Notes: generated by a model not told the origin, from the sequence alone. Positions 22,113-38,872 are shown, numbered from the stretch's first letter. The stretch: 64,000 bases of DNA from Pseudomonadota bacterium (GCA_043825875.1 JBDRRF010000035.1:17751-81750), one strand, 5' to 3'. Made by a program: numbers and translations.

Positions 22113-23525
22113 ATGCTTATGAATAAAAAAAACTTTAATATACTTGTTGTTGATGATGAAGAAAGCATGAGAGAATTGCTGGATGTAATTTTGTCAAGGG
22201 AGGGATACAATATTACATCAGCAGGAAGTGGGGGCAAGGCAATCTCCTGGCTTGGAAAAAAAGATTTTGATCTTCTCCTTTGCGATATCAGGCTGGGGGA
22301 TATGACAGGAATTGATGTCCTCAAGGCAGCAAAGATGAAAGATCCTAATTCTGTTGTTATCATGATTTCTGCCTATGCTTCTGCTGAAACAGCGATTGAA
22401 GCCATGAACAGCGGGGCATATGACTATGTTCCTAAACCTTTCAACAATGAGGAGCTTAAACTTACCATTGCTAACGCTCTTGAATTAAAGACCATAGAGC
22501 AGGAAAAGAAATATATTGATAATGAACTTAAAAAACAGCTTCATTTCGGGAAAATAATAGGAAACAGTCCCGCCATGATGCATGTTTACAATCTTATAAA
22601 GCAGGTTGGAAAAACTAAAACCAGCGTACTTATCACAGGCGAAAGCGGAACCGGCAAGGAACTTATAGCAAAGGCCATCCGTGATGAAAGCAATCGCCGT
22701 GACAAGCCTTTTGTTGTGATAAACTGTGCCGGTATTCCTGAAACATTAATGGAGAGCGAGCTTTTCGGGCATAAGAAAGGGGCTTTCACGGGAGCGGCAT
22801 ATGATAAGAAAGGGCTTTTTGAGCTTGCCGATAAAGGGACCGTTTTTTTAGATGAGATAGGTGAGCTTAGCATACATCTCCAGGTAAAACTTCTAAGGGT
22901 TGTCCAGGAAAGAGTATTTAAACCTGTTGGAGGTATTGAAGATGTTGCAGTTGATATAAGGATAATATCTGCAACGAATAAAGATCTTACAAGCGAAGTA
23001 ATAGAAGAGCGTTTCAGGGAAGATCTTTTCTACAGATTAAATGTTATAGAGATAAAATTGCCTCCTTTAAGAGAGAGAAAAAGCGATATTCGTGCTCTTG
23101 CCCAGCATTTTCTTGAAAAGTATTCCAATGAAATGGGAAAGGAGGTTACGAAATTATCTTCTTATGCTATAGATCTTTTAAATAAATATGAATTTCCCGG
23201 AAATATCCGGGAGCTTGAGAATTTAATGGAAAGAAGTGTAGCCATTAGTGATACAAATATTCTTCTTCCTGAAAGTCTTTCTATTTCTATGCATAAGAGA
23301 AGACGCTTTGTTGAAGGAGTTAAAGGGCGAAGATTTGATTTAAACGATGTTGAAAACGGTGTTGCTCTTGATGTAATACTTGAAGATCTTGAAAAAGCTT
23401 ATGTAAAGAAGGCATTGGAATGTTCAGGCGGTGATAAGATAAAATCTGCTGAATTACTAGGGATAAACATAAGATCAATGAGATATCGTCTTGAAAAACA
23501 CCACCTAGACAGTAAAGGTGAATAA
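22113..23525 (+). CDS. sigma54-dependent response regulator (NtrC/PilR-like: REC-AAA+-Fis HTH)
   Basis: LVVDDE receiver, GESGTGKE, ESELFGH..GAFTGA, FLDEIGE, FREDLFYRL, PGNIRELEN. Confidence 0.93.
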   Translation: MLMNKKNFNILVVDDEESMRELLDVILSREGYNITSAGSGGKAISWLGKKDFDLLLCDIRLGDMTGIDVLKAAKMKDPNSVVIMISAYASAETAIEAMNSGAYDYVPKPFNNEELKLTIANALELKTIEQEKKYIDNELKKQLHFGKIIGNSPAMMHVYNLIKQVGKTKTSVLITGESGTGKELIAKAIRDESNRRDKPFVVINCAGIPETLMESELFGHKKGAFTGAAYDKKGLFELADKGTVFLDEIGELSIHLQVKLLRVVQERVFKPVGGIEDVAVDIRIISATNKDLTSEVIEERFREDLFYRLNVIEIKLPPLRERKSDIRALAQHFLEKYSNEMGKEVTKLSSYAIDLLNKYEFPGNIRELENLMERSVAISDTNILLPESLSISMHKRRRFVEGVKGRRFDLNDVENGVALDVILEDLEKAYVKKALECSGGDKIKSAELLGINIRSMRYRLEKHHLDSKGE

Positions 23526-23774
23526 GGTCTTTTGATATGGCTGATGCCGGTTAAGCATGTATTTTTCGTTAATTGATTTACAGGCAGACATCAGAATAAC
23601 TGTAATTGAGGCTAATCTAATAATAAATAGAATGTTAAGCTTTGTCATAATTCCACGTATAGAATCTGATTCTGATCCAAAATGTTGACACCTATCTTCC
23701 TATCCTCAATAAAAAACAATATCAGCAATCTAATCCCGGTTACCATTGCTTCTCGATAATCATAGACGTGGCAA

Positions 23775-24053
23775 TCATTTCTTCGACCGATTTTCCATAA
23801 AAACCGAAATCATCAAAACACCGATTGCAAGATTCAATATCAGCAAACCGATTAAAGTATCTGAAAACTGCTGAGGCCATCCATCCCATGCAAACCAGCC
23901 ACAAAACATTATGGTGCTGTATAAAAATGGCAGCATCACATACTTTCCCATTTTCTCGCGATTTGCCGTATAGGCTATTGTAAAAATTAAACCACTGAGG
24001 AAAACTATTATTGCAATCGCATCAACAACATTTATATCTGCATACTTACTTAT
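23775..24053 (-). pseudogene. small 3-TM membrane protein ORF lacking a canonical start (ATA after GGGAG); pseudogene or non-canonical start
   Basis: 92-codon open frame (I)SKYADINVVDAIAIIVFLSGLIFTIAY...LLILNLAIGVLMISVFMENRSKK*; SD-like GGGAG 9 nt upstream of ATA; absent from ORF track. Confidence 0.45.
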
Positions 24054-24253
24054 GGCCTGATACTCCCTATTTTTCCAACAATATGCTAATTACCTTTATA
24101 ACGTTGTGCTTTTTCCGGATGATCAATCAAGCTTCTACAATCAGAGGCTTGGGTTCCATTGATAATCGGAGTTCTACCTGGTCTCTTATTAACAATAATA
24201 CCATCCAGTTTACAAATACTTTATTTGGGCATTTTTCGATTCAGAAAAAAAGA

Positions 24254-24303
24254 TTGACACTCACACGTGTCTATCATATGACATTCATGTCATATGATAG
24301 ACA
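24254..24303 (+). promoter_or_regulatory. putative promoter overlapped by a perfect 17-bp inverted-repeat operator
   Basis: TTGACA (24254) then TGTCTATCATATGACAT-TC-ATGTCATATGATAGACA (24268-24303). Confidence 0.65.
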
Positions 24304-24460
24304 GTTTGTAATATCCCTAATACTATAGATACTTACACAAAAGTTGATCCAACAGCTTAAAATCCTTTGAAAAAATTAATGATTTAATAAACGGAGTGTA
24401 TATATCATATTATCATATCCTATAAAACATACGCGGGCTTTTGAAACTACTAACACAAAG

Positions 24461-26065
24461 TTGGAAAATTCCGAGATTGATATGCTATCAGAGGATTGGT
24501 CGGATGATAGGATGGAAAGTATTATCCGACTCTGGGAAGTTTTGCGAACTATCGGAACATTAGATAAAAAGTTTAAATTTATAACCGATGCCGTTAATGA
24601 TGTTATTAAAACCGAATTTACAACACTTTGGATTGTCAAAGAAGGGGACAGATGTAATTCAGGTTGTACTTTTTCAGAAAAGTTATCTGGGAACATAACT
24701 TGCGAAGGCAATATTGAATGTCTTCACCTTACAGCAAGTTCCGGTGGCTATAGTAACTTTAATACAGATCTAAACAGGATACCATTAAGCCATTTTAAAG
24801 CAGGAAATTTTTTAATAACTAATAGTCACGATTCTTTAATAAATAGGATTATTAAAGATTTATTTATACATAATGAAAACTGTGCAAACGGACTTGGCAT
24901 AAAATCTGTTGCCGGATTCAAACTTTTTTCGGAATCTGACAATGTAATAGGTGTACTTGCCGTGTTCAGCAAACAAATTATAAGTAATGCTGATATTGTT
25001 CATATCGAATGCTTCTCCAATTTGGCAGCTCAGGTTATAAAAAATTCTCAACTGGAAGATTCACTGATAAAATATCGTGAACACCTCGAGGGACTCATAA
25101 AAGTACGTACCGATGATCTGATGGAAACCAACCGGAAATTACAAAAGATTGTCAAGGAAAAAGCCCATATTGAAAAATCTCTTATAGAAAGCGAAAAAAG
25201 GTTTCGCAGCTTTCTCGATAATTCATATGATGTTATTTACTTTATGAATTTTAAAACATCAAAATTCGAATATCTAAGCCCGTCTTCCAAAAAAATAACC
25301 GGTTATACTCCCGAAGAAATCATATATTTGCAGGAAAGCGGAAATTTTGACTTCCTTCATCCTGAAGAGGAAGATAATGTCCATGAATTCTTTAAACAGC
25401 TGAACATTCGTCCGGATGAGGATGATATTAACAGAACCATAACCTTCAGAATGAAACACAAAACAAATGGCCACCGCTGGGTCAGCACCACGCGTTCCGT
25501 TATTTTTGATGAAAATGGAGAACCGGCAGCTATTGTTGGTAATCTTAGAGATATTACCGATATAAAAAATGCTGAAGAACAAGAAAAGAAAATGAAAGAT
25601 AATCTTGAAAACATGGTTCAGGAGCGCACAGTTGAACTTGAGAAGAACAACACAGCCTTAGAAGTACTTTTAAAAAAGCGGGAAATGGATAAAACTAAGC
25701 TTGAAGAAAAACTGATTTTTAATATTAAGCAATTAATTGTTCCGTATCTTGAAAGATTAAATAATACTACATTAGATAATTATCAGGAGAATTTGATACA
25801 TATTATTGAAGCGAACTTAAATGACATTCTTACTCCGCTTATTCCGTTTGTTTCTCCTTCTCAGATTGACCTGACACCTTCGGAAATTCAGGTTGCAAGC
25901 CTTATAAAGCTGGGAAAAACCACCAAGGAGATAGCAAACACTTTACACCTGGCTATGAGCACAATCCATTTCCACAGAGATAATATAAGAAATAAAATCG
26001 GAATTAAAAACAAAAAGGTTAATCTTAGAAGCTATCTTTTATCTTCGGAACAAAACATATGGTGA
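24461..26065 (+). CDS. GAF-PAS-LuxR transcriptional regulator
   Basis: Cys-rich GAF-like N-terminus, [11 protein letters not shown] (ITGY, LHPEE, RDIT), C-terminal [34 protein letters not shown]; start codon uncertain (TTG). Confidence 0.9.
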
Positions 26066-26092
26066 GTTTTCATAATTTTTTTATCTGTTGCC

Positions 26093-27478
26093 CTATCTGT
26101 TGTCGACGATTCTTCTTTTCTGCTGCCTGCCCCCTCTTCTTAAAATACCCGCTTCTACAAACTGAATTTCGGGATTTCCCATAAGACCTTTTTCCATATT
26201 TTTCTTAATAGACGGTACGGAATTTATGCAGCCGATGATCCTGGCTGTTAAATCATCCTGATTTTTCAGTACCTCAACACAGCATTTAATATGATCCAGG
26301 CCGTCTTTTCTGGTGATAAATATTCTGTAATCTATGAGCTCAGAAATGGCGTATAATCTGTCATCAAAAAGAGATGTATATATTTTATCGTCTTCTCCGA
26401 TATTGACAATCAGTGCTTTTCTTCTTGGGATTTCACCGATTCTAAGCAAAGTACAAGCACCACATTCACAGGGACTTCGGATAAGCCGGGCAAGATCTCC
26501 TGTACGATAGCGAATCAAAGGCATGCCAATACGATTTAAAGTAGTAAAAACCAGCTCTCCTTCCTCTTCTTCATTATTTATCGGCTCACCTGTTTTAAAA
26601 TCTACTATTTCAAAATAAAGATCACATTCATTAAAATGGTATCCCTTGTGTGCTGTGCATTCTATACCGATAGCAAAGCCAGGTTCTGTCATTCCGTAAT
26701 GATGGTATACTTTTGCATTCCAAGCTTTTTCTAAAGCCTTCCGCATGGCAGGGGAAAGATATTCGGAGGTGATAAAAACGAATTTTACGCCAATATCGGC
26801 CAGATCAAAAACAGACTCGGATTCTTTTGTCATGCGCCATATGCGAAAGGCTGATCCCATGATCATATCCGGTTTAAATGCTTTTATGCTTTCAATCTGA
26901 GATGGGGTAGGGCTGTCGCACTGACCGATTAACGGAATTCCGTTAAGATTTTTTACTCCTTTTGCAATCATTCCGGCCATGCTAAGCGGAGGAGAATTAT
27001 CGGGCAAAAATATCTGAACTTTGCATCCGTCAAAACAATATTGATCGTTTCCGTCCGAAACAACAGTGTGCATTATTGCTGCCATGGATTCTATGATTGC
27101 ATCTGCATCCTGCTGTGTGAAAAATATTTTTTTGGGTTTTCCGGTAGTACCTGTTGTAAAATGACTGTATATCCTGTCAATTTTTCCCAATGAAACACAA
27201 AGGAGCTTATAAGGGCTGTTTCTTAAATCATCGGGTTCGGTAAAAGGAAGATGTCTGATACTTTCAAGAGAATCAATTTTGGCGATTTTATCTTTAAGAG
27301 ATTTATAAAATACACTGTTATCGGCAGCATAGCAAAGTGTCTTTATAAGCCTGTCAAGCTGATACTGCTCAATATCCTTGCGGGTAATGCAGTCTGGGTT
27401 TTGACCGAATTGTTTTCGTGAGCAGTTTTTATTAAAAAACTCTTTAATTTTGTTATGAATCCATTTTTCCAGGATCAT
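26093..27478 (-). CDS. AMP-dependent CoA ligase, phenylacetate-CoA ligase-like (DVU_1553-type)
   Basis: TTGTTGKPKKIFFT P-loop, HYGMTE, MPLIRYRTGD, CECG. Confidence 0.88.
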   Translation of the reverse strand: MILEKWIHNKIKEFFNKNCSRKQFGQNPDCITRKDIEQYQLDRLIKTLCYAADNSVFYKSLKDKIAKIDSLESIRHLPFTEPDDLRNSPYKLLCVSLGKIDRIYSHFTTGTTGKPKKIFFTQQDADAIIESMAAIMHTVVSDGNDQYCFDGCKVQIFLPDNSPPLSMAGMIAKGVKNLNGIPLIGQCDSPTPSQIESIKAFKPDMIMGSAFRIWRMTKESESVFDLADIGVKFVFITSEYLSPAMRKALEKAWNAKVYHHYGMTEPGFAIGIECTAHKGYHFNECDLYFEIVDFKTGEPINNEEEEGELVFTTLNRIGMPLIRYRTGDLARLIRSPCECGACTLLRIGEIPRRKALIVNIGEDDKIYTSLFDDRLYAISELIDYRIFITRKDGLDHIKCCVEVLKNQDDLTARIIGCINSVPSIKKNMEKGLMGNPEIQFVEAGILRRGGRQQKRRIVDNR

Positions 27479-27496
27479 TTTGCTTTTTTATCTCTT

Positions 27497-28642
27497 TTAA
27501 TTATTTATTCTTTTACCTATCGGCCCAAGCTTGTCATTTCGTGATGGCAGTATAATAGTCGATTTTGCAGGCATAACATCGTCACCTCTTTGATTAATAG
27601 CTTTTGATACTATATCAACACAGCATTCTTTCTTATCATCTATATATTTATCTGTAACATAGCCGGAAATTCTGATGGCATCCGAAAGATAAACCAGCCT
27701 CTTAAATCTTGCATGGCTGCTTTTTATCCAGCCATTATCACCCATCCAGTTTGTCAGAAAATGGATAAGCCAGCAATGCCTTTGAACAGCCGTATCATAA
27801 GGATAAGGCAAACCGCATTCATTGGCTGCATCAATATTATAATGTACACTAAAAACCGGTTCCATAGCTGATGTTTTGCTGTCTCTAAATGCCCAGGCCG
27901 GATGTTTGCGATAAGTTTTAAGAGCTAATCCATGAGCCTGTAATGGAACCGGCGAAGCGCCAATGCAAAAGGATATAATATCAGTTATCCCCAAAGGGCC
28001 TTTTATGATTTCGGGTAATACTTTGCCTTTGTCAACATCTTCATAATAAAGCGGCTTTTTACCCCGGTATTTTTCTGCAAGCACATGATCTTCAATTTCT
28101 TCCAGTTCCTGTAATGTCCATGGATGAGGCAATTTAATTTTTTTGCCGGAAACATCTTGTTCATCCGGGCTTCGTTCAACCCTGAATGCAGAAGAGTTGA
28201 CGCTGGCAACCAAATGGTCATTCTGATTTATAAATTTTACTTCCTGCTGTTCATAAACGGATTTGCCGTAAAATTGGCTGTTGACCTTTTTGCATCCTGT
28301 CAAAAAACATTGAGGGCTGATCCGGTCATTTACTAGTACGGGTTTGTAGTATTGCCAGTCTACACTTGTTTGTAAAGCATGCACTCCCGGCAAACCCTGC
28401 AATACCCATGTAGGAAGAACGCTGTTAAGCCATGATGGCGGAGCCGGAAGTGTTTTATAAGAAGTTGAATCGGCATAATTTATATCTCTCCACAAAATAT
28501 TGGGATCGCCTATGCCGTCGGCAAACTTTTTAATCGCATCTTCTGTGGCGACACTGTTAAATTGATAGTTAACACGAAGTTGTTTTCCTACCCGGATTCT
28601 CATTTCTTCAAACGCTGCATCCGTAATCTTACTCTTTTCCAT
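27497..28642 (-). CDS. double hot-dog MaoC-family acyl-CoA dehydratase
   Basis: AIKKFADGIGDPNILW, APPSW, YYEDV..G..LP, VHY...LTNWMGD.GW. Confidence 0.82.
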   Translation of the reverse strand: MEKSKITDAAFEEMRIRVGKQLRVNYQFNSVATEDAIKKFADGIGDPNILWRDINYADSTSYKTLPAPPSWLNSVLPTWVLQGLPGVHALQTSVDWQYYKPVLVNDRISPQCFLTGCKKVNSQFYGKSVYEQQEVKFINQNDHLVASVNSSAFRVERSPDEQDVSGKKIKLPHPWTLQELEEIEDHVLAEKYRGKKPLYYEDVDKGKVLPEIIKGPLGITDIISFCIGASPVPLQAHGLALKTYRKHPAWAFRDSKTSAMEPVFSVHYNIDAANECGLPYPYDTAVQRHCWLIHFLTNWMGDNGWIKSSHARFKRLVYLSDAIRISGYVTDKYIDDKKECCVDIVSKAINQRGDDVMPAKSTIILPSRNDKLGPIGKRINN

Positions 28643-28656
28643 ACACTCATTTATCC

Positions 28657-30051
28657 TTAATAATTGCTAAGTCTATGCTGTATTTTGTTGTGCAGACTGT
28701 CACCATGCGAGCCGGTCAAATAGTAACTGCAAAAAGGAATCAGCCGCTTATCTGTTGTTATTACGTGGATGCAGCAACCCTTAAGTCTTTTAAGATCAAT
28801 TGTCCAGGCATCCATAAAAGGCATCCCCGATATGGATAAATAGTGTGTTTGAATCCGTTCGTGAAAATTATTGAAAGGTCCGTTTGGGGTTTTGCATGAA
28901 CATTGTTTTGTTGCAGGTTCTATAAATCTGGCTTTTTCAGTGATAAAACGACGCACATGAGCAGTCGGGCTTTCTTTCTTTTGGGCTTGCATACGGTTTG
29001 TTTTGTTTTCAATTAGAGTGGAATTGTCAGGATGAAAACGGGTAGTCGTCTGTAGTTTGCCCTTATCATTTAAGATATAAAATCCTGAAAAGCCGCAATG
29101 AGAATCCATTTTTCTGCGTGGCTGGAAATCATTAACCTTGATTTCGCCATGGGTTTGGATTTCAAGCAATCGTAATATTTCAGGAGTAGTAATTCTACTC
29201 TCATTTGACGGGCTGAAGTTATAGCGACCGGAATAGGTAACAGGCTGGAAATGAATTCCTTTAATAACCGGCATATATTTTTTTGCAAAAAAAAGGATAT
29301 CGCCCAGTTGAGAGTCGTTTATCTTCGGAATTACAGTAGGAACCAGTTGAACTCCAAGCCTGATTTCAGAACAGTTTTCAACCGCTTTAATCTTTATATC
29401 AAAAAGGTTTGTTCCTCTTATTTTTTGGTAAATATCATCTGTCACTCCATCAAATTGAAGATAAATCAAATCAGCCCCGGCATCTTTTAAAGCCTTTAAA
29501 TAAACTTTATCTTCAGCAATCCTTATGCCGTTAGTATTAATCTGGATGTGGCCCAATCCAACGTCTTTTGCCATATGGACAATTTCAGGAAGATCATCTC
29601 TTACAGTCGGTTCTCCGCCACTTAACTGGATAGGACAGTTTCCGGCAGCAGCCACAACTGCTTCACACATTTCTTTAAGCTGTTTAATTTCGGGAGTATT
29701 TGATGATGATTGCCTGTCTCCGGCAAAACATACGGGGCAGGAAAGGTTACACTTATCTGTTACTTCCATTAAAACAGTACAGGTATCCGACTGGTGCTCC
29801 GGGCATATCCCGCAATCTTTCGGGCATCCCGATACTGTTTTTGTCTGTGTCTTTTGAGAAGGTTGAGATAATTCTCCGTAGCCCCATTCTTCATATGTTG
29901 GATCACCTCTCCAGATTACGGTTTTAAATTCGCCATGATCGGGGCAGGTTTTTTTTAGAAAGATATCTTCACCTTCTAAAATCTTTAAAGCAGGTATAAC
30001 AGCAAGGCAAAGGGGACAAACACTTGTTGTCTCGCCTATATTTTTAGGCAT
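28657..30051 (-). CDS. trsS: radical SAM protein, TrsS-type (Cys form)
   Basis: N-terminal CPLC/CPDHG and CPxDCGICPxH clusters, CNLSCPVC radical SAM motif, QLSGGEPT, C-terminal LKGCCIHV...IPFC. Confidence 0.85.
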   Translation of the reverse strand: MPKNIGETTSVCPLCLAVIPALKILEGEDIFLKKTCPDHGEFKTVIWRGDPTYEEWGYGELSQPSQKTQTKTVSGCPKDCGICPEHQSDTCTVLMEVTDKCNLSCPVCFAGDRQSSSNTPEIKQLKEMCEAVVAAAGNCPIQLSGGEPTVRDDLPEIVHMAKDVGLGHIQINTNGIRIAEDKVYLKALKDAGADLIYLQFDGVTDDIYQKIRGTNLFDIKIKAVENCSEIRLGVQLVPTVIPKINDSQLGDILFFAKKYMPVIKGIHFQPVTYSGRYNFSPSNESRITTPEILRLLEIQTHGEIKVNDFQPRRKMDSHCGFSGFYILNDKGKLQTTTRFHPDNSTLIENKTNRMQAQKKESPTAHVRRFITEKARFIEPATKQCSCKTPNGPFNNFHERIQTHYLSISGMPFMDAWTIDLKRLKGCCIHVITTDKRLIPFCSYYLTGSHGDSLHNKIQHRLSNY

Positions 30052-30060
30052 TTTACTATC

Positions 30061-30840
30061 CTATAATGGTTTACGGAAAGAAAATACAGCATATCCCGGT
30101 TTGCATTCTGTAAAAAATCTTTTCCACTCAATTTGAGTATCAGTACTGTTTTTGCCGGTTGAACAGCAGGAAATACTTCTGCCTGCAAAATGCTTCCAGA
30201 AATCATCCAATGAACCATAGCCTGAGATTAATCTGTAAGCGATTTTTTTTAATTCAATAGAATGATCTTCAAACAGTTCATTTTCAAATCCCTCTTTACA
30301 AAATACTTCGATGTATCCGGCTTTTGTCAATGCCCCGGTAAAGCAACAATTAAAAAGAACCTCATCTTTTAAATCGGAGCTTAATGGATGATTTAAGATA
30401 ACATCCGACATCGAGAATCTTCCGCCCGGTTTAAGAATCCGAAAAATCTCTTTTGCAACACGCATTTTATCAGTAAACAGAGAAAAAGCACATTCCATAA
30501 TAACCGCATCAAAAACCGAGTTGGAAAACGGCAATGATTCGGCATCGGCTAAACAAAATTCTGCTTTATTAGAAAGCGACAACTTTTGGGCTTTTTGCCT
30601 GGCAAGAGATGATGATTCAAGCGATAAATCTGTGCCTATAACCTGGCAATCAAAAAGTTCGGATAAAAAGCAAGCGCTTGATCCTCTGCCGGATGCGATA
30701 TCTAATACCAGATCTCCATTTTGAATACCGGCTGATTCGGCGGTTTTCTTTGTGAGTTCCAATCCGCCGGGATGTAATATTTCATCCAAGACCTGATTAA
30801 ACTCTTTTGCTTCATAGGCTTTAACAATAGAAGATTTCAT
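30061..30840 (-). CDS. class I SAM-dependent methyltransferase (DVU_1556/TrsM-type)
   Basis: LHPGGLELT, VLDIASGRG, DAESLPF, ECAFS, LKPGG, CCFTGA, KPGY. Confidence 0.85.
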   Translation of the reverse strand: MKSSIVKAYEAKEFNQVLDEILHPGGLELTKKTAESAGIQNGDLVLDIASGRGSSACFLSELFDCQVIGTDLSLESSSLARQKAQKLSLSNKAEFCLADAESLPFSNSVFDAVIMECAFSLFTDKMRVAKEIFRILKPGGRFSMSDVILNHPLSSDLKDEVLFNCCFTGALTKAGYIEVFCKEGFENELFEDHSIELKKIAYRLISGYGSLDDFWKHFAGRSISCCSTGKNSTDTQIEWKRFFTECKPGYAVFSFRKPL

Positions 30841-30859
30841 GTAAGCATAGCTTTAAATT

Positions 30860-31048
30860 TTATCCGAACTTTGCTTCCATTTCGGCTTCGGTTTTGTTCA
30901 TTTCCATGGCTACTTCTTCAGTTATAAATTTTATCTTACATCCGGGGCATTCCAGACCGCTTTGAAAACCAAGCATTTCATAATAAATTAAAGAAAGATC
31001 TTTTACTTCCATTGGTTTTTCACATTTACAGCATTGCCAATTTGACAT
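30860..31048 (-). CDS. small CxxC...CxxC redox/zinc-ribbon protein (DVU_1557-type)
   Basis: WQCCKC...CPGC..FITEE.A...E..MEAK; GAGGAG RBS. Confidence 0.8.
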   Translation of the reverse strand: MSNWQCCKCEKPMEVKDLSLIYYEMLGFQSGLECPGCKIKFITEEVAMEMNKTEAEMEAKFG

Positions 31049-31051
31049 TTT

Positions 31052-31330
31052 TCAGCTCTCCTCATCAAAAGCGCTTTTTACACAATACGCAGTATGAATT
31101 TTATAGATATCAGCATCTTTTGAATACCTTACAAAATAAAGCGCATTGCCGATAGTTTTTTTGCCTAAAAATTCATTATTGCCGGTATCACAAAGCTTTT
31201 CATTTGTTGTTTCGGAATCATAAATGACCATTTTAAGCTCATCATCCAAAATGCCTCTTGATTCCAGCAGTTCCGAAACTTCAGAGCTTTTATTTATATT
31301 GATTGTTTCATATCCTTCCGCATTGCTCAT
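31052..31330 (-). CDS. hypothetical protein resembling the C-terminal domain of DVU_1558-type oxidoreductases
   Basis: LLESRGILDDELKMVI...YFVRYS...IHTAY pattern; AGGAG RBS; operon position. Confidence 0.7.
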   Translation of the reverse strand: MSNAEGYETININKSSEVSELLESRGILDDELKMVIYDSETTNEKLCDTGNNEFLGKKTIGNALYFVRYSKDADIYKIHTAYCVKSAFDEES

Positions 31331-31361
31331 TAGTTACTCTCCTTTGTTTATCTGCAAGGCT

Positions 31362-33854
31362 TCATGAATAAATCTCAGTAAGCTTTGCCTTTAAATAGGA
31401 TTGGTTATCTTTTTTGATATTTGCAGGATTGGGCGGCTTTGCCTTATTCTCATCCCAGTTGGGATTAAACAACAGATCAAGAACATGAATAGTAGGTTTG
31501 TGTTGAGCCAGCGCTTCCCTGCATGTAGCACAATAGGTAAGAATATCATGCTTTGCTTCTTCTACTCTTTTTTTAGTGATTTTTTGGGCCAGATCAAAAG
31601 AAGCAAAAGCTATCATACCTCCCATACCGCAGCAAAGGCCGTTTTCTCCATGATGTTCCATTTCGATAATACTGTTTCCTGTTTGAGATACCAGTTTGCG
31701 TATATTATTATGAGTATCTTTTTTAAATCTTCCGGCGCAAGGATCATGAATTGAAAATACGCCTGTTTTATGCCCATCTGATAAAACAATTCCCTCTTCA
31801 GCCAGAACATCATATAATGATCTTATTTTAATTCCTGAGGCATCATGCTGGCTTATAGTTCTAAGACAGTTGGGACATGCCAGAATAAGCTCTTCTGCTC
31901 CCATCCGTTTAATTTCATCCGTAAGATCTTTAATCATATTTTGAAATGATGCATGATCTCCTAATGAACGGGTTGGGTTTCCGCAGCATTTTAAAATAAT
32001 GCCCGTATCTTTATCGTTTGATATAAGCCAGTCATAAGCTGAAATTACAGATTGCGGCGAATATGCCGACAGATGGCAACCCGGCATGAAAACCCGGCTG
32101 CTTTTTCTTTTGTCAGGATTTGGAATGCTTAACATGAACTCATCTGATCTTACCCAATCCTGATCTTTTATAACAAGCTTGTGCGTTGGAAGCGGGCCTT
32201 TGCCGCACTCAACCAGCTCTTGTTTTGCTTCGTTGCACATTTTTCCGATATTAAGTCCTTCGGGACATACTTTTTCACAAAGATCGCAAATATTGCAACA
32301 ATATGGAATCGCCGGTCTTTTAATAAAAGCGCCATCTTTGTATTTATTAACAAGATCTTTGGGACTGTCGCAAAAACGATTTAGAAATTCACAATCCGTC
32401 ATACAGCTTTTGCATTCACAGACAAGGCATCTTTGAGCCTCTTTAATCGCAGTTTGCTCATCAAAGCCAAGTTCCACTTCATCAAATCCCAATCGCTTGT
32501 CAATAGCTGTTTCCGGCATTTTGGATCTTGGGGTTGGTGTTGCATCTTTTTTAAAAGTTTCTTTTAAAACTTTATATGTCTTTTGTCTTCCTTCATAAAG
32601 ATCCTGACCGCTTAGATACCTGTCAATTGAAACGGCTGCTTCTTTACCGGCAGCAATAGCTTTAATAACAGTAGATGCACCTGAAACAACATCACCTCCG
32701 GCAAAAACTCCAGTGGTATTTGTCTGCATTGTAATCTCATCAACTGCCAGAGTCCCCTGCTTGTTTAGTTCAGGCATTATCGGCAGCTTTGATTTATCTA
32801 CACTTTGACCAATGGCGATTATCACATTATCTGTATCTAAAACAAACTCTGACCCTTTAATCGGTATGGGACGGGGTCTGCCGCTATCATCTACTTCTCC
32901 CGGTTTCATTTCAAGACACTCAACGCCAATACATTTTCCGTTATTTTCTATTATTTTAACAGGAGAAACGTGGAAACGGATATTAACGCCTTCAAGCTCA
33001 GCCTCCTTGATTTCAAGCGGATCGGCAGGCATTTCATCGCGGGATCGTCTGTAAATAATGCTTACATTATCCGCTCCAAGCCTTTTGGCTGCTCTGGCGC
33101 TGTCAATAGCAGCATTGCCGCCTCCGACAATTATTACCCGTTTCCCAAGATTAATTTTTTCACCATTATTAACAGCTTCCAGAAAATCAAGTGCAGAAAA
33201 CACACCGCTGCTGTTTACTCCTTGCAATCCGGCATTTACAGAAGTTTTCGCCCCAACTCCCATAAATACGGCATCATAATTTTCATTGACAAGTAAATTC
33301 TCCAGACTGAGAATCGGCTGGCTGGTTTTTATCTCAACTCCCAGTTCTCTGATGTATTCGATATCATTATCAAGGCAAGTGTCAGGCAATCTGTATGCCG
33401 GAATACCATAACGCATAAGCCCGCCTGTTTTCGGCATTGCTTCAAAAATTGTTACAAAATAACCTTTTCTTATCAAATCGTATGCACAGGAAAGACCTGC
33501 CGGTCCGGAACCTATAATTGCAACCTTTTTTTCTTTGGTGATTTTACAGGGGCTGGCCTTTTCTCTTCCGTTTTGAACTTCATAGTCAGATACAAATCTT
33601 TTAAGAGCCCGAATTGCTACAGGTTGATCAATATTATTACGCTCGCATTGACTTTCACATGGGTATGTGCAAACTCTTCCGCATACTGCGGGAAAAGGCA
33701 TGGTTTCTCTGATTACTTCCAGAGATTTATTGAATTCACCTTGTGAGATAAGGGTTATATATTTTCTTACATCAATATGTGCCGGGCACGCATCCTGACA
33801 ACGGGGATAAGCATCTCCCCTACAGTTTTCAATTATTTTATCGATCTCTTTCAT
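31362..33854 (-). CDS. multidomain Fe-S flavoprotein: GltD/NfnB-like FAD/NAD(P) module + 4Fe-4S dicluster + two CCG (HdrD-like) domains
   Basis: CQDACPAH, CGRVCTYPCESQC, GSGPAG, GGGNAA, CECKSCMTDC, CNICDLCEKVCP, PGC, CCG, HDPC, CCGMGG, YCATC. Confidence 0.9.
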   Translation of the reverse strand: MKEIDKIIENCRGDAYPRCQDACPAHIDVRKYITLISQGEFNKSLEVIRETMPFPAVCGRVCTYPCESQCERNNIDQPVAIRALKRFVSDYEVQNGREKASPCKITKEKKVAIIGSGPAGLSCAYDLIRKGYFVTIFEAMPKTGGLMRYGIPAYRLPDTCLDNDIEYIRELGVEIKTSQPILSLENLLVNENYDAVFMGVGAKTSVNAGLQGVNSSGVFSALDFLEAVNNGEKINLGKRVIIVGGGNAAIDSARAAKRLGADNVSIIYRRSRDEMPADPLEIKEAELEGVNIRFHVSPVKIIENNGKCIGVECLEMKPGEVDDSGRPRPIPIKGSEFVLDTDNVIIAIGQSVDKSKLPIMPELNKQGTLAVDEITMQTNTTGVFAGGDVVSGASTVIKAIAAGKEAAVSIDRYLSGQDLYEGRQKTYKVLKETFKKDATPTPRSKMPETAIDKRLGFDEVELGFDEQTAIKEAQRCLVCECKSCMTDCEFLNRFCDSPKDLVNKYKDGAFIKRPAIPYCCNICDLCEKVCPEGLNIGKMCNEAKQELVECGKGPLPTHKLVIKDQDWVRSDEFMLSIPNPDKRKSSRVFMPGCHLSAYSPQSVISAYDWLISNDKDTGIILKCCGNPTRSLGDHASFQNMIKDLTDEIKRMGAEELILACPNCLRTISQHDASGIKIRSLYDVLAEEGIVLSDGHKTGVFSIHDPCAGRFKKDTHNNIRKLVSQTGNSIIEMEHHGENGLCCGMGGMIAFASFDLAQKITKKRVEEAKHDILTYCATCREALAQHKPTIHVLDLLFNPNWDENKAKPPNPANIKKDNQSYLKAKLTEIYS

Positions 33855-34651
33855 GCCACTTCTTCCTGTTTCCGGTTTTTTCCAACATCTACATCAGCTA
33901 ACAATGCCGCACCCAAAGCTCCAATAATTTGCGGCACCTCAGGCAATACGACTTCTTTATCAAGCAATTCCTGAATAAATTTAACAACTCCGCTGTTTTT
34001 AGCTACACCTCCTGTAAAAACAATCTTGTCATTATAGCCCACAGATCTTCCCATTATAATAACCCGCCGTGAAACCGCTTTGTGTAATCCTGCAACCATA
34101 TCCTCACGATTGGTTCTGTCTGCTCTTAAAGATATAATTTCAGATTCTGCGAAGATAGTGCATGTGCTGGAGATATTGGACGGACTCACACTCTTAAGTG
34201 AGTCAGGCCCCATCTGATCAATTGTAAGATTCAAAACGGAAGCCATAACTTCTAAAAATCTTCCGGTTCCTGCAGCGCATTTATCATTCATGACAAAACT
34301 TTTTACTGTTCCGTTTTCTCTCATACCAATAACTTTGCTGTCCTGGCCTCCAATGTCAATGATTGTTCGGGCTTCGGGAATTAAAAAGCTGGCTCCTTTG
34401 GCATGACAAATAATTTCACTGATGCTTTTATCAGCGAATTTCACACTGTCTCTGCCATAGCCGGTCGATACAAAACGATCTACATCCTTAAATGTGTACC
34501 CGGCTTTTTTAAGTGCTTTTTCCGTTACCTCTTTCGAAGATTCTGTTACATAATCTCCTGTGGGGATAACTTCATAAGCCACAAACTCACCATCTTTTAA
34601 TATGGCTGTTTTAGCTGTAGCAGCCCCGACATCAACACCTACTATTAACAT
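33851..34651 (-). CDS. ATP-dependent CoA-substrate-specific enzyme activase (HgdC/BadG-BcrA/D family)
   Basis: GVDVGAATAK, STGYGR, EIICHAKG, DIGGQDSK, MNDKCAAGTGRFLE, CTIFAESE, TGGVA, GALGAA. Confidence 0.95.
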   Translation of the reverse strand: MLIVGVDVGAATAKTAILKDGEFVAYEVIPTGDYVTESSKEVTEKALKKAGYTFKDVDRFVSTGYGRDSVKFADKSISEIICHAKGASFLIPEARTIIDIGGQDSKVIGMRENGTVKSFVMNDKCAAGTGRFLEVMASVLNLTIDQMGPDSLKSVSPSNISSTCTIFAESEIISLRADRTNREDMVAGLHKAVSRRVIIMGRSVGYNDKIVFTGGVAKNSGVVKFIQELLDKEVVLPEVPQIIGALGAALLADVDVGKNRKQEEVA

Positions 34652-34910
34652 GGGTTCTCCTTTTGTGCTGTTTTTATTTCAAACAAATCAGACGATTTAT
34701 AACATAACGGAGGCTTCCTAAGAATCTGTATCGTATTGAATGTATTTTCTCATAAATTTTCATTAATGCAAGGTGAGAAAACTATGGGTATAATATGGTG
34801 CCTGTCCCCATATATATCCATCTTCAATGTGTTTTAATCGAAGTTTCAAAAAACCGAAATTTCCAATATTGATCATAGATCATTAACAGCTCTGTTTAAT
34901 AAAATATAAT

Positions 34911-34927
34911 GTCGGGATTATCCCGAC
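34911..34927. promoter_or_regulatory. perfect palindromic operator in the divergent promoter region
   Basis: GTCGGGAT-T-ATCCCGAC. Confidence 0.7.
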
Positions 34928-35018
34928 TTTTTAACCTCAATTTTCCAATCTTACTTTTTCCGGCAGTTTGTGTAAAAATCACACTGAAATTTTAGTCTTG
35001 GATACTCATTTTTAAAGA

Positions 35019-35100
35019 AGACGGAAAGCAATCGGCACCGTCTGAGATTGTAGAATATGTACATTCAATAATAAGCTCATCTGAGCGGATTTGCCGAAAG
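35019..35100 (+). ncRNA. candidate structured 5' leader (H-type pseudoknot)
   Basis: Stem AGACGG/CCGTCT; loop TCGGCA complementary to TGCCGA at 35092-35097; intervening hairpin; about 20 nt upstream of the AAGGAG RBS. Confidence 0.4.
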
Positions 35101-35133
35101 AACTACAACCAAACTGATAGAAGGAGATAGGAA

Positions 35134-36276
35134 ATGGGAGCGATGGAACGGCTGAAAGATCATTTGTCGGACAGAGCATCGACATTAAGGAAACTAAAGA
35201 AAGACGGTGTCAAAATTGTCGGATACACACCCGGAGGGTTCATGCCTGAAGAAATTGTCCATGCGGCAGGTGCAATTCCGATTTGTTTGTTAAAAGGCGG
35301 CGATGCTGATTCCGTAATCGAAAGTTTAAAGTACAATCCAAGGTTTTTTTGCACTTTCTGCAAGACCCAGATTGCGTATCTTATGGGCGGCGATCTGGTA
35401 TATAATCTGCCTGATATTCTCGTTGTTCCACACACAGACTGCAATCACAAGATAATTGCCGATTCCTGGAACTACTACAGCAAGACGGATGTGTTCCGAT
35501 ATGGGATTCCTCACAATAAAGGAGAATCTGCCCGAACCTATTTTAAAGGAGGGCTGGAATTGCTGAAGAAAAAGCTTGAAGATCTTACCGGAAACAAAGT
35601 TACTGAAGAAAAGCTAGTTGATGAAATACAGATAGGAAACAAAATAAGAAGTCTTTTTAAAGAAATCAGCTTTGCGCGAAAAACAAACCCGGCTGCAATC
35701 AGCAGCAGGGATTTTACAATGCTTCAGCATGCATCCACATTTGCGGACAAGGATTTTATTCTTCAAACCTTGGAAGCAGTCCGCGATGAAATAAAAGAGA
35801 AGCCTACAGCCGACAAAAACCGGAAACGGGTTATGATGATAGCATCTTCTTTGGCAAACGGCGATAATCTTGTTTTTGATATTATTGAAAATACCGATGC
35901 TGATATTGTTTATGAAGAGGTTACGGAAGGATACCGTCCATATCTGGATAATGTGGATGTTAACGGAAATGACCCAATACAAAACTTATCCGATATATAT
36001 TTTGACAAGCGTATACCTGCTCCCTGGGATCGTCCCTGGGGAGACCGCATGGAACGGCTTATTGAAAAGGCAAAGGAATTTTCCTGCGGCGGAGTTGTCT
36101 GGTATCAGATGATGTACCGTGACGGATTTGATATCCAGGCCCATTATTTTAGTAAGATGATAGAAGAGCAAGCAGGAATCCCGATGGTCAAGATTGAATC
36201 CGATTATGCTCCGGCTGAAAAAGGCCCGGCTCGTACAAGGATTGAGACCTTGGTTGAAGTAATGAGTGCCAACTAG
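35134..36276 (+). CDS. 2-hydroxyacyl-CoA dehydratase/benzoyl-CoA reductase family subunit (HgdB/BcrC-like)
   Basis: PEEIVHAAG, FCTFCK, DCNH, LEDLTGNKVT, GGVVW, IESDY..RTRIETLVE. Confidence 0.88.
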   Translation: MGAMERLKDHLSDRASTLRKLKKDGVKIVGYTPGGFMPEEIVHAAGAIPICLLKGGDADSVIESLKYNPRFFCTFCKTQIAYLMGGDLVYNLPDILVVPHTDCNHKIIADSWNYYSKTDVFRYGIPHNKGESARTYFKGGLELLKKKLEDLTGNKVTEEKLVDEIQIGNKIRSLFKEISFARKTNPAAISSRDFTMLQHASTFADKDFILQTLEAVRDEIKEKPTADKNRKRVMMIASSLANGDNLVFDIIENTDADIVYEEVTEGYRPYLDNVDVNGNDPIQNLSDIYFDKRIPAPWDRPWGDRMERLIEKAKEFSCGGVVWYQMMYRDGFDIQAHYFSKMIEEQAGIPMVKIESDYAPAEKGPARTRIETLVEVMSAN

Positions 36277-36321
36277 AGATTTTAGTTTATCAGATATCAA
36301 ATCAATATCAGGAGATTTATT

Positions 36322-37731
36322 ATGTATACAAATTTATTCAAACTATGCGGATTCAGCGATGAAGAAATCGACGAACAAAAACCAAGGATAGAAAAGACCT
36401 TACAAATTATCGGATCAGATACAAAGGAAATGATTGCAAAGGCTGAAAAAAATGTCCAGGCAAATTTTGATTGCTCTCTTGAAGGCATAAGAATGCTGCT
36501 TAAAGTCATGATGAAAGAAGTTATGGATGCTGTCTTGTCTGGTGAAGAATACGAAAAAAGAGTTTATTACAATTGGCCCGGCCTTAGCCCTTTAGCACAG
36601 GCTATGATAGTTGCCGGCAGAGGGACAAATGTATACGCATGTCTGGCAAAACAATATCTGTGGATGGGACTTGGTAATATCTTTGATACGGTAAATGATC
36701 TTCTTGACTTGGGAGAACTTATCGGACAAACCGCAGGAAGAGCACATTGCCCGGAATACCAAATTTATACAGCCTTGTATGAAAGAAAGATACTTCCTAT
36801 CCCCACTATAGTTTTGAATTGCGGCTGGTGTTGTGATCAGGGCCCTGAAGTTGAAGAACTGTGCACAAAGCTATACGGCTATGAGGCTACTTACCTTGAT
36901 GGAACCAATGACTGGGAATGGGGAAGCTGGCCCAATATGGATAAACGCGCAATTGAATACAACGCAAGCACAATTAAAGCTTCAATAGCCCGTGTTAAAG
37001 AAACAACAGGCCTTGATATTACCGATGATCACATTAAAGCAGCATTGCAGGAAATAATGCAGATTACAATGGGCTATATGACTCTTATCGGAATGGTGTC
37101 AAAGGCTGATCCGCAGCCTATAAGCCAGGCCGATATCGGATTGGTTTTTTTAATCAAGGGTGCCGGAACACGCTATCCCAAAGATGTAATCAATGGCATT
37201 AATATGCTCATTAAGGAAACAAAACAAAAAATTGATGCAGGAGTTGGAGTAGTGCCCAAAGGTGCTCCAAGGGTATATGTGCAGCTTAGAACACTTGTGG
37301 ACCAGAAGCCTATGAGAGCCATCGAAGAGCTGGGGCTTGCAATACCGATGATGATGGTGGACGGTTACCATCCATATGAAACTCAGCCTACAAATTATCC
37401 GAATGATCGATGGATGTCTTTATCCGAGCAGGCATTTCGCAAACCTCAGCTTAGTTCCGCCGAAGGAAGTCTGCGATACTGGGAATGGTGTGCAAATGAT
37501 CAGAAAGTAGATGGAGTCATAATGATGTATCCTATATCATGCAGGCCTTTTTGCAGTCCCACATTTATAGGAAAAGATTATCTGGAAAAAAGCACAGGGC
37601 TTCCAACTATTCTGGTTGAAGCGGATGGCTATGATACAAGAAACTACAGCTCAGGACAGATAAAGACACGAATTGAATCATTTGCCGAAATTTTAAAAGC
37701 CAACAAAAAGATAGCTGCCGGAACTCTTTGA
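36322..37731 (+). CDS. 2-hydroxyacyl-CoA dehydratase/benzoyl-CoA reductase family subunit (HgdA/BcrB-like)
   Basis: AHC, WCCDQGP, VDGVI...SCRP, GLPTILVEAD..D.RNYS..QIKTRIESFAE. Confidence 0.85.
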   Translation: MYTNLFKLCGFSDEEIDEQKPRIEKTLQIIGSDTKEMIAKAEKNVQANFDCSLEGIRMLLKVMMKEVMDAVLSGEEYEKRVYYNWPGLSPLAQAMIVAGRGTNVYACLAKQYLWMGLGNIFDTVNDLLDLGELIGQTAGRAHCPEYQIYTALYERKILPIPTIVLNCGWCCDQGPEVEELCTKLYGYEATYLDGTNDWEWGSWPNMDKRAIEYNASTIKASIARVKETTGLDITDDHIKAALQEIMQITMGYMTLIGMVSKADPQPISQADIGLVFLIKGAGTRYPKDVINGINMLIKETKQKIDAGVGVVPKGAPRVYVQLRTLVDQKPMRAIEELGLAIPMMMVDGYHPYETQPTNYPNDRWMSLSEQAFRKPQLSSAEGSLRYWEWCANDQKVDGVIMMYPISCRPFCSPTFIGKDYLEKSTGLPTILVEADGYDTRNYSSGQIKTRIESFAEILKANKKIAAGTL

Positions 37732-37819
37732 TATGCATAAATCCCAATAGATCCAATATGGTTGGATGGTAAATATACCTGTGCATAGAATAACCTATTG
37801 CATTACAAGTATATCCTGG

Positions 37820-38872
37820 CTATCGGCAGATCAGGCTCGTTACAACATCAAATACTTCTTCTGCCGATATATTTTTCATACATGCTGTATTATCACATTC
37901 TTTTTTAAGGCATGGGCTGCAATCCATATCGCTTCTTATTACTTTATGTCCTTTTCCGTAAGGGCCGGTTCGCAACGGTGAAGTAGGTCCGAAAAGCGCA
38001 ACAACCTTGCATCCCATTGCAGATGCGATATGCATAGGTCCGGTATCAGTACAGACAAGAACCGAACATTTCGAATAAAGGTAAGCAAGTTCTTTTAGGC
38101 TTGTACGGCCTGCAAAATTTATTGTTCTATCTTTACTGTCCATTTTATTCATAATGCCATCGATAACCGGTACATCCTGTTTACTTCCTGTAAATATTAT
38201 ACTACAGGACAAATTCTTTTGCAGCATTGAAGCAAGTTTAGAAAATTTATCTTCTTCCCATAATTTTGTTTTCCATTTGGCCATCGGATTAACGGCTATA
38301 ATATTTTTATTTTCTATTTGTGATCCAAGCAGGTTGTTGATAAGAATTTTATCCTGTTCAAAAACAGGAATTTCACCCTTAACGGTATCGGTATTGCAAC
38401 CAAGATATGATGCTACTTTGAGGTATCGGTCAATTGCATGCTGTTCGTAGCTGACAGGGACAGGAGGTTCTTTTAAGAAAAATGAAGCTCCTTCCCTTGA
38501 TCCGCTCATGCCTATTTTCCTTTTTCCCTTTGAAATTGCAGCTAAAACACCGCTTCTGAAAAGACCCTGCAAATCAATTACTACATCATATGAAGATAAT
38601 CTCACATCTTTATAAAATTTAATTATATCAGAAGATGTCTTTATGAATTTTGAAGGTTTGAAAATATCTTTTTGCCATCTTTTTCTTCCTGATACAATAA
38701 TTCGGTTAATCGACGGGTGCCCTGTTATTACCTGGGAAGCTTCTTCTTCAATCAGCCAGTCTATTTTAGAGGCAGGGTAACATTGTCTTATTGCTTCAAG
38801 AAATGGAAGAGCGTGAACAACATCACCTATGGAGCTCAATTTAATTATTAAAATATTTTTGACATCTGTCAT
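37820..38872 (-). CDS. waaC: ADP-heptose:LPS heptosyltransferase (GT9), probably heptosyltransferase I
   Basis: ILIIKLSSIGDVVH, DLQGL.RS, DTGPMHIA, LFGPT. Confidence 0.78.
   Translation of the reverse strand: MTDVKNILIIKLSSIGDVVHALPFLEAIRQCYPASKIDWLIEEEASQVITGHPSINRIIVSGRKRWQKDIFKPSKFIKTSSDIIKFYKDVRLSSYDVVIDLQGLFRSGVLAAISKGKRKIGMSGSREGASFFLKEPPVPVSYEQHAIDRYLKVASYLGCNTDTVKGEIPVFEQDKILINNLLGSQIENKNIIAVNPMAKWKTKLWEEDKFSKLASMLQKNLSCSIIFTGSKQDVPVIDGIMNKMDSKDRTINFAGRTSLKELAYLYSKCSVLVCTDTGPMHIASAMGCKVVALFGPTSPLRTGPYGKGHKVIRSDMDCSPCLKKECDNTACMKNISAEEVFDVVTSLICR

Follow-up and report, generated by a model that had tools for sequence, protein, structure and literature searches.

We examined a run of 11 genes (24461..37731) in a 64,000-nt stretch of DNA from a Pseudomonadota bacterium (GCA_043825875.1, JBDRRF010000035.1:17751-81750; hereafter the window), in which the radical S-adenosylmethionine (SAM) enzyme TrsS and its cassette are found beside an HgdB/HgdA-like subunit pair (beta and alpha) and an ATP-dependent activase. 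The locus is a real multi-phylum variant of a catalogued gene neighbourhood, that of TrsS with the Mop-type aldehyde oxidoreductase, and it carries an HAD/BCR-fold subfamily that is unstudied. No description of an Hgd-linked, Mop-free TrsS arrangement was found in the literature searched; supplements and the TrsS-defining paper (Haft and Tolstoy 2025), which may mention Mop-free neighbourhoods, were outside its scope.

All 11 open reading frames (ORFs) were recovered at their positions. The minus-strand run comprises eight genes, with intergenic gaps of -4, 31, 3, 19, 9, 14 and 18 bp. The activase gene and the hgdB-like gene diverge across 482 bp, and the regulator gene converges on the ligase gene, with 27 bp between the regulator end and the ligase stop. 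The layout is thus as a preliminary description of this DNA had it: a tightly packed operon, a divergent Hgd-like pair and a convergent regulator. That description gave the regulator a GAF-PAS-LuxR architecture, of which PAS and LuxR were matched and GAF was not (no match at E 0.001). The GC content of the genes (0.34-0.43) is near that of the genome (0.39), and Rfam gave no match within 23000-39000.

The assignment to the TrsS/DVU_155x families was borne out by hidden Markov models, as TrsS, the ligase, the methyltransferase and the dicluster protein (NF045663, 548 bits, cut-off 530) all exceeded their NCBIfam cut-offs. The 62-amino-acid (aa) CxxC protein reached 32.8 bits on NF045645 (cut-off 60) and exceeded the Pfam cut-off for DUF7479. 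The best Protein Data Bank (PDB) match of the ligase was phenylacetate-CoA (coenzyme A) ligase 4r1l (E 1.5e-37). The Mop-linked neighbourhood (NF045646, NF045663, NF045666, NF045667, NF045645, NF045669, NF045668), whose families are named after D. vulgaris DVU_1551-1559, has the same core genes in the same order; by comparison, the window adds the hot-dog enzyme, the activase and the Hgd-like pair, and has the C-terminal domain of the dicluster protein split off.

Table 1 Genes and predicted regulatory sequence of the TrsS-Hgd locus in the window
Feature	Position	Strand	Evidence and remarks
PAS + LuxR-type regulator	24461..26065	+	PF08447, PF00196; convergent on operon
DVU_1553-family ligase, phenylacetate-CoA ligase-like	26093..27478	-	NF045666 305 bits (cut-off 300)
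Double hot-dog (MaoC-type) hydratase/dehydratase	27497..28642	-	PF13452
TrsS radical SAM enzyme, Mop-free clade	28657..30051	-	NF045646 553 bits (cut-off 490); tree
DVU_1556-family methyltransferase	30061..30840	-	NF045667 162 bits (cut-off 155); two conserved cysteines
62-aa double-CxxC protein (DUF7479 / DVU_1557-like)	30860..31048	-	PF24292 40.5 bits (cut-off 27)
92-aa protein, split-off dicluster C-terminal domain	31052..31330	-	NF045663 model positions 673-752
GltD-like flavoprotein + ferredoxin + CCG domains (dicluster protein)	31362..33854	-	PF07992, PF14691, PF02754 twice
Single HgdC-type ATP-dependent activase	33851..34651	-	TIGR00241 288 bits (cut-off 125)
Sigma-70-like promoter (11/12), then perfect 17-bp palindrome, operator-like	34883..34927	+	Predicted
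HgdB/beta-like subunit, degenerate cluster site	35134..36276	+	PF06050; Arg329 replaces third cysteine
HgdA/alpha-like subunit, uncharacterised HAD/BCR-fold subfamily	36322..37731	+	Invariant cysteines 143, 171, 407

Two other interpretations of the 92-aa/CxxC gene pair were considered. Selenocysteine read-through, which was rejected, would use an in-frame TGA across the 3-bp gap that is out of frame in genomes G008 and G011 (2-bp gap); all ORFs of the locus are whole under code 11 and the selenocysteine form was not found. A toxin-antitoxin origin, for which DUF4258 and MqsA gave sub-threshold scores only, is not claimed.

Recurrence and inheritance of the Mop-free TrsS cassette

The TrsS model matched 44 places in 43 of 401 Desulfobacterota genomes, and all 44 neighbourhoods were examined; alignment and phylum searches scored four candidates per genome, so absences are given as not found. 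Mop lies within about 10 kb at 30 of the 44 places, none of which has an Hgd or hot-dog match. The 14 Mop-free places are diverse: the alpha gene is adjacent in three (window, G169, G365), a hot-dog gene is present in two (window, G363), a RACo gene in two (G289, G366) and an AOR-family gene in two (G201, G329), five have no such partner (G138, G200, G231, G260, G269), and the contig of G315 is only 6 kb. The RACo-type activator, a second type of ATP-driven reductive activator beside the cassette, adjoins the ligase of both Mop-free cassettes in which it occurs (L157:6291-8213, scanned; L162:5778-7745, by likeness).

Two genomes of family f93 (G169, G365) have two alpha genes, the activase, the CCG half of the dicluster protein, the 92-aa and CxxC proteins, the methyltransferase and TrsS together, and G363 (family f90) has the genes from the CCG half to TrsS, plus hot-dog and ligase. 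Only the CCG half (360-420 aa) of the dicluster protein is retained at other loci. The full set was found in the metagenome loci L030 and L031, where the long proteins are 41-67% identical, the activase, alpha and beta genes lie on the opposite strand and converge on the ligase, and the alpha proteins belong to clusters in which the named members are Chloroflexota. Five sequences longer than 10 kb, matched by equal length only, were common to the TrsS, hot-dog and alpha match lists; a Dehalococcoidia contig and the chromosome of Dehalobacter sp. DCM are among them, the latter with homologues of TrsS, the hot-dog enzyme and the alpha subunit. A scan of genome contigs gave only 2 close loci, and plasmid records only distant Tes-like proteins (30-34%). 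The regulator was seen in same-genus loci only. Small accessory genes within or close to other copies encode DUF2061 (L030:5214-5588, scanned; L110:14360-14737, by likeness) and, at L031:11133-11627 and L030:8561-9169, a thioredoxin-like protein and an Fe-S assembly-type domain.

A quick IQ-TREE phylogeny of 67 TrsS rows placed 39 Mop-free-type rows in one clade (SH-aLRT 100, stem 0.7) that holds no Mop-linked row, and TrsS of G201, G329 and G269 fell among the Mop-linked rows. The TrsS of G138 (L164:3733-5123), which consists of two overlapping ORFs of 393 and 126 aa owing to a frameshift or an assembly error, was left out. Within the clade, all loci linked to Hgd or hot-dog genes belong to a 29-row subclade (SH-aLRT 96), in which f93 lies next to a 23-row clade (100) that includes the window, G363, L030, L031, Dehalococcoidia and Dehalobacter. 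A FastTree phylogeny of the alpha proteins, in which a row labelled L030_beta that is a copy of the alpha protein is disregarded, showed the same split, with f93 beside a 21-row clade including the window, Chloroflexota and Dehalobacter. The window is nearer Chloroflexota than f93 in both trees, a pattern that fits joint transfer. Residues also separate the two types: Mop-linked TrsS has Cys314 (14/17) and a cysteine pair near 344-345 (10/17 and 15/17), none of which occurs in 15 Mop-free rows, whereas His318 and Pro411 are found in 15/15 Mop-free and 0/17 Mop-linked rows.

TrsS and the Hgd-like genes also show co-inheritance. The alpha family was detected in all five sampled genomes with the 29-row TrsS subclade versus 11 of 396 others, and within f93 the beta gene was in 3/3 genomes with the subclade and was found in 0/4 others. 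TrsS and alpha distances were correlated (Mantel rho 0.58; p 0.003 for 11 pairs, p 0.03 for 8 pairs), although 6 of the 11 pairs were matched by equal sequence length only and kin are not independent, which weakens the case.

Regulatory DNA provides a further link. L030 and L031 have a 20-base box, with 1 mismatch, upstream of both the Rrf2-led TrsS operon and the hgdB operon; it sits just after a TTGACA-type promoter, and 20 shuffles of L031 gave 4-8 mismatches. The box is absent from the divergent region of the window, where the best site has 4 mismatches of 20. The palindrome there (34911-34927) is the sole exact copy in the genome, and its arms are conserved in two same-genus genomes. A 13-base stretch upstream of the regulator (23799-23811) recurs in the divergent region (34849-34861), with 18/20 matches in G011. 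Taken together, these patterns support a linkage of the TrsS cassette and the Hgd-like genes and, in Chloroflexota, their probable co-regulation; the Hgd-like genes are syntenic with TrsS elsewhere. The alternative is that the genes adjoin each other by chance, the TrsS cassette being an orphan that came to lie next to an unrelated Hgd pair, and this genome does hold a second regulator-Hgd copy apart from the cassette. The linkage recurs, however, in two Desulfobacterota families and Chloroflexota, in three arrangements, with congruent trees and a shared box, so that chance pairing is largely refuted and we regard it as extremely unlikely. A conserved, co-inherited system independent of Mop is very probably real.

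Molybdoenzymes in the same genome and in relatives

The genome also carries a canonical Mop-TrsS cluster on contig C76 (L012), in the order Mop (1679 bits), dicluster protein, DVU_1557-like protein, methyltransferase, C-GCAxxG-C-C protein (175 bits), TrsS and ligase, in agreement with the DVU_1553-1558 gene order that the preliminary description had given. Its TrsS is only 41% identical to that of the window, and the C-terminus of its dicluster protein is 32% identical to the window's 92-aa protein. XdhC-like, YqeC and MocA genes are on contig C109. When the genome's own proteins were used as tblastn queries, no Mop, XdhC, MocA-type nucleotidyltransferase or C-GCAxxG-C-C match was detected in the window, as had been described for the locus.

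A paralogous regulator-hgdB-hgdA run on contig C41 (L011:466-14822), 75, 88 and 81% identical to that of the window and with the regulator directly upstream of hgdB, continues into genes for FAD, 2Fe-2S and two tandem molybdenum subunits. These subunits score best on the 4-hydroxybenzoyl-CoA reductase family, each of them below the cut-off. The preliminary description had overlooked this near-identical Hgd pair beside Hcr-like subunits. Further genes of the C41 locus encode a flavoprotein, an MFS transporter and a CCG protein, and its regulator is shortened to 349 aa (536 aa in L026). Because no activase was found in the C41 locus and the genome's other activases are at most 45% identical to that of the window, the C41 pair may borrow the window's activase. 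A canonical Mop-TrsS cluster in G011 (L108:1766-12610) ends 13 bp from the hgdA stop, and both cassette types flank the Hgd pair there.

No Mop-like match at E 1e-60 was found in 8 genomes (seven of f93 and G363 of f90), among them the 100% complete G169 and the 99% complete G363. With TrsS in a clade of its own and a xanthine-oxidase-family enzyme found in 0/8 of these genomes, the earlier view that the module is not simply Mop maturation machinery is upheld. The cassette could still serve a pterin enzyme encoded elsewhere, such as a tungsten AOR or the Hcr-like enzymes of C41, because MoaC and AOR-family genes are retained in 5/5 genomes tested; the C41 operon and the tail-to-tail abutment of the Mop cluster and hgdA in G011 would also fit. 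The MoCoBD_1 (xanthine-oxidase-family) domain was found in 0/5 of the same genomes, though, and XdhC in only one; a pterin enzyme was unrecognised in loci L030, L031, L109, L110 and L111, and the co-regulation is with Hgd genes. Service in trans is thereby weakened, and we consider it improbable.

The Hgd-like pair, its activase and the hot-dog enzyme

The Hgd-like pair differs in its cluster and catalytic residues from benzoyl-CoA reductases and classic 2-hydroxyacyl-CoA dehydratases alike, and appears to be neither. The alpha model (pLDDT 93) matched BzdO, HadB and MbdO (TM about 0.70, 14-20% identity) and has an additional N-terminal helical region of about 75 residues. The pair failed the cut-offs for BzdN/O and BcrB/C (84/454, 78/421, 25/449 and 28/487 bits, score/cut-off) and for HadB/C, and it scored 181 against 350 on the double-cubane model NF040772. 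The alpha family stood apart from BzdO-, HadB- and double-cubane cluster protein (DCCP)-like references, which were taken from the same genome, and forms its own clade. A HgdC-type ATPase is shared with HadBC and BzdNO, but there is one activase gene and not a PQ pair, and the activase is below the BzdQ and BcrA/D cut-offs.

The passages of the BzdO source (PMC11971306) give three alpha cysteines (Cys95/128/380), His131 and a catalytic Glu65. The cysteines align with alpha Cys143/171/407, kept in 29/29 rows. His131 is replaced by Ala, Ser, Gly or Pro at alpha position 174, and alpha columns 104-120, where Glu65 is expected, have no glutamate among the common residues (Gln111 in 16/29 rows; the register was inferred, since hhalign left the region unaligned). 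The beta subunit departs from both the three-cysteine cluster of HadBC/HgdAB and the six-cysteine double-cubane site of DCCP: the ligand of the C-terminal (third) cluster site is Arg or Asp in 16/17 rows (Arg329 in the window, aligned to HadC and DCCP). Cys73 is kept in 9/17 rows, Cys103 in 8/17 and the third site in 1/17, six of the rows being near-identical same-genus copies, and L030, L031 and G365 encode beta subunits in which all three usual cysteines are missing.

Given the HAD/BCR fold and the three alpha cysteines aligned to those of BzdO, the locus might serve catabolism by way of a classic aryl-CoA reductase or 2-hydroxyacyl-CoA dehydratase, and relatives adjoin genes for CoA transferases, mutases, UbiD and hydantoinase-like proteins. 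All subunit cut-offs failed, however, His131 and the third beta cysteine are replaced as above, and alpha columns 104-120 show no conserved glutamate; a true BzdN/BzdO pair and two DCCPs are encoded at other places in the genome, and SAM-consuming steps would probably be costly for catabolism. We therefore give this route little probability, and the two chemistries named in the preliminary description, 2-hydroxyacyl-CoA dehydration and aryl-CoA reduction, are unsupported as worded.

The beta-alpha pair, mostly with the activase beside it, was also seen as a compact unit in unrelated surroundings (L123, L125, L126, L176, L177, L178, L180, L181, L183, L184), and its beta subunits have no third cluster cysteine. 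The f93 genomes carry at least 4 alpha copies near genes for acyl-CoA mutases, CoA transferases, a glycyl radical enzyme and many solute-binding proteins (L115-L117, L121, L122).

The hot-dog model (pLDDT 78) matched, at 10-15% identity, the MSMEG_6754 dehydratase, mesaconyl-CoA hydratase and a MaoC protein of Chloroflexus, and the gene is absent from Mop-type clusters. The hot-dog and HAD/BCR folds, together with the PaaK-like ligase, indicate CoA-ester substrates.

The cassette might instead act as a portable maturase, making or altering a cofactor of the low-potential enzyme next to it, be that Mop, tungsten AOR or the Hgd-like pair. The core is constant and the partner varies, from Mop at most places to AOR-family or RACo genes at a few, and the beta subunits stripped of all three cysteines would also be in line with such a role. 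Yet 11 of 16 sampled genomes with the alpha family are without the TrsS subclade and the beta-alpha-activase trio is often alone; the trio is therefore independent of the cassette, and the enzyme would have to mature without it. The hot-dog hydratase between TrsS and the ligase fits cofactor assembly poorly, and 4 f93 copies have no partner enzyme. We consider a maturase fairly unlikely.

TrsS, the methyltransferase and the predicted pathway

The closest solved relative of the window TrsS is the tetraether lipid synthase Tes/GDGT-MAS (7tol, E 4e-97). TrsS keeps the rubredoxin CxxC...CxxH, the N-terminal CxxxCxxC, the radical SAM motif and Met410 (equivalent to Met439), and the rubredoxin, N-terminal auxiliary and radical SAM ligands and the labile Met were invariant in 32/32 TrsS rows. 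According to the source passages on Tes, which describe its metal ligands and a sulfur-carbon intermediate at the chain end, the enzyme forms a sulfur-carbon bond at a terminal carbon (PMC9433317). Cys319, 426, 427 and 441 of TrsS align with 7tol cysteines; the cluster set of Tes is unnamed in those passages (PMC9433317). TrsS differs from Tes in that it does not reach the Tes cut-off (NF045702, 367 versus 450), in having Val430 for Tyr459 (numbering offset inferred), and in cassette neighbours that point to a small CoA ester and not to a phytanyl lipid.

Hgd-type modules act in bacterial ether-lipid synthesis. A lipid pathway, in which TrsS would join the ends of acyl chains to give membrane-spanning lipids and esters would be reduced to ethers by the Hgd set, would agree with this background and with the tetraether synthase as best solved relative, nearly all of whose metal ligands are retained. 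Against this, the Tes cut-off is missed, the ligase is PaaK-like and not a long-chain ligase, and the genome holds other candidates, two more Tes/TrsS-like radical SAM genes on C109 (L014:6493-9295; 256 and 185 bits on the TrsS model) and a 1469-aa protein with two activase-like regions on contig C5 (L175:1860-6269). By eye, the C109 genes are in a cluster that we take to include acyl carrier protein, ketosynthase and ketoreductase genes, and the C5 protein presumably resembles the PlsA/Ger ether-lipid enzymes. The lipid pathway thus appears very unlikely.

Cys117 of the methyltransferase is present in 33/33 rows and Cys166 in 30/33, and the two align with the SNCV and CIAGA cysteines of two ArsM proteins over cut-off. 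These C-terminal cysteines bind arsenic in ArsM, and the radical SAM enzymes ArsS and ArsL form carbon-arsenic bonds. TrsS could couple As(III) or Se with an acyl-CoA radical, and methylation by the ArsM-like enzyme would then give an organoarsenic or organoselenium acid. ArsM was the second-best NCBIfam match of the methyltransferase (NF008823, 112.8 bits), and a table in the source passages includes TrsS as a selenoprotein family, with Haft and Tolstoy 2025 cited (PMC13188914). The ArsM score is nevertheless far under the cut-off of 263, the N-terminal ArsM cysteine is missing, PGG stands where ArsM has its GCGNP region, and arsenic-resistance genes were unrecognised in the ORF lists of the loci examined (by eye, no family scan). 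Metalloid alkylation is accordingly unlikely in our estimate.

We tentatively favour an anaerobic tailoring pathway, possible though short of probable, in which a CoA-bound acid would be reshaped, attacked by TrsS at an unactivated carbon, and then methylated on the inserted heteroatom; the steps, their order and the product are predictions from the families of the encoded proteins. The ligase is predicted to form the CoA ester of a small acid; dehydration or reduction of this ester would likely fall to the hot-dog enzyme and to the Hgd-like pair, aided by its activase. TrsS would then abstract H from the unactivated carbon, with the radical trapped on a heteroatom, probably sulfur of its C-terminal cluster. 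That heteroatom would next receive a methyl group from the two-cysteine methyltransferase. Electrons may be supplied, or a thiol kept reduced, by the CCG flavoprotein together with the 92-aa domain and the CxxC protein. Mop oxidises an aldehyde to an acid, and Mop and the Hgd/hot-dog set may be alternative suppliers of acyl substrate to a common core.

Several observations weigh against this pathway. Besides the independence of the trio, six Mop-free TrsS genomes have neither an adjacent Mop nor a beta gene, no strong hot-dog match was found in G365 or G315 (85% complete), the ligase and hot-dog genes of G169 are on a separate contig, and so is the Hgd trio of G363, which is more distant. The hot-dog family is far broader than the module, with TrsS seen in 8 of the 80 metagenome loci of this family, a set in which 26 loci span at least 8 kb. 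Residues disagree as well, as Tes Cys438 corresponds to Gly409 in the window TrsS (numbering offset inferred), and the methyltransferase scored higher in PDB searches to N- and O-methyltransferases than to ArsM.

A broader and more doubtful reading extends the tailoring pathway to a new kind of anaerobic biosynthetic system in three phyla. An ATP-driven HAD/BCR-fold enzyme of a new, one-cluster class would make an acyl-CoA, TrsS would place S, Se or As on an unactivated carbon of it, and the ArsM-like enzyme would cap the heteroatom, yielding an undescribed cofactor or organometalloid acid. If this is true, the role assigned to the whole Mop-TrsS cluster of Desulfovibrio and others would change from the maturation of an enzyme to the synthesis of a small molecule.

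About a tenth of the sampled Desulfobacterota carry the TrsS cassette, and the literature found gives it no function. Its Mop-free version beside CoA-ester enzymes narrows the substrate class of TrsS, and the locus exposes two unstudied enzymes, the closest small-molecule relative of Tes and an HAD/BCR-fold subfamily whose partner subunit is stripped of cluster ligands. A model in culture may be available in Dehalobacter sp. DCM.

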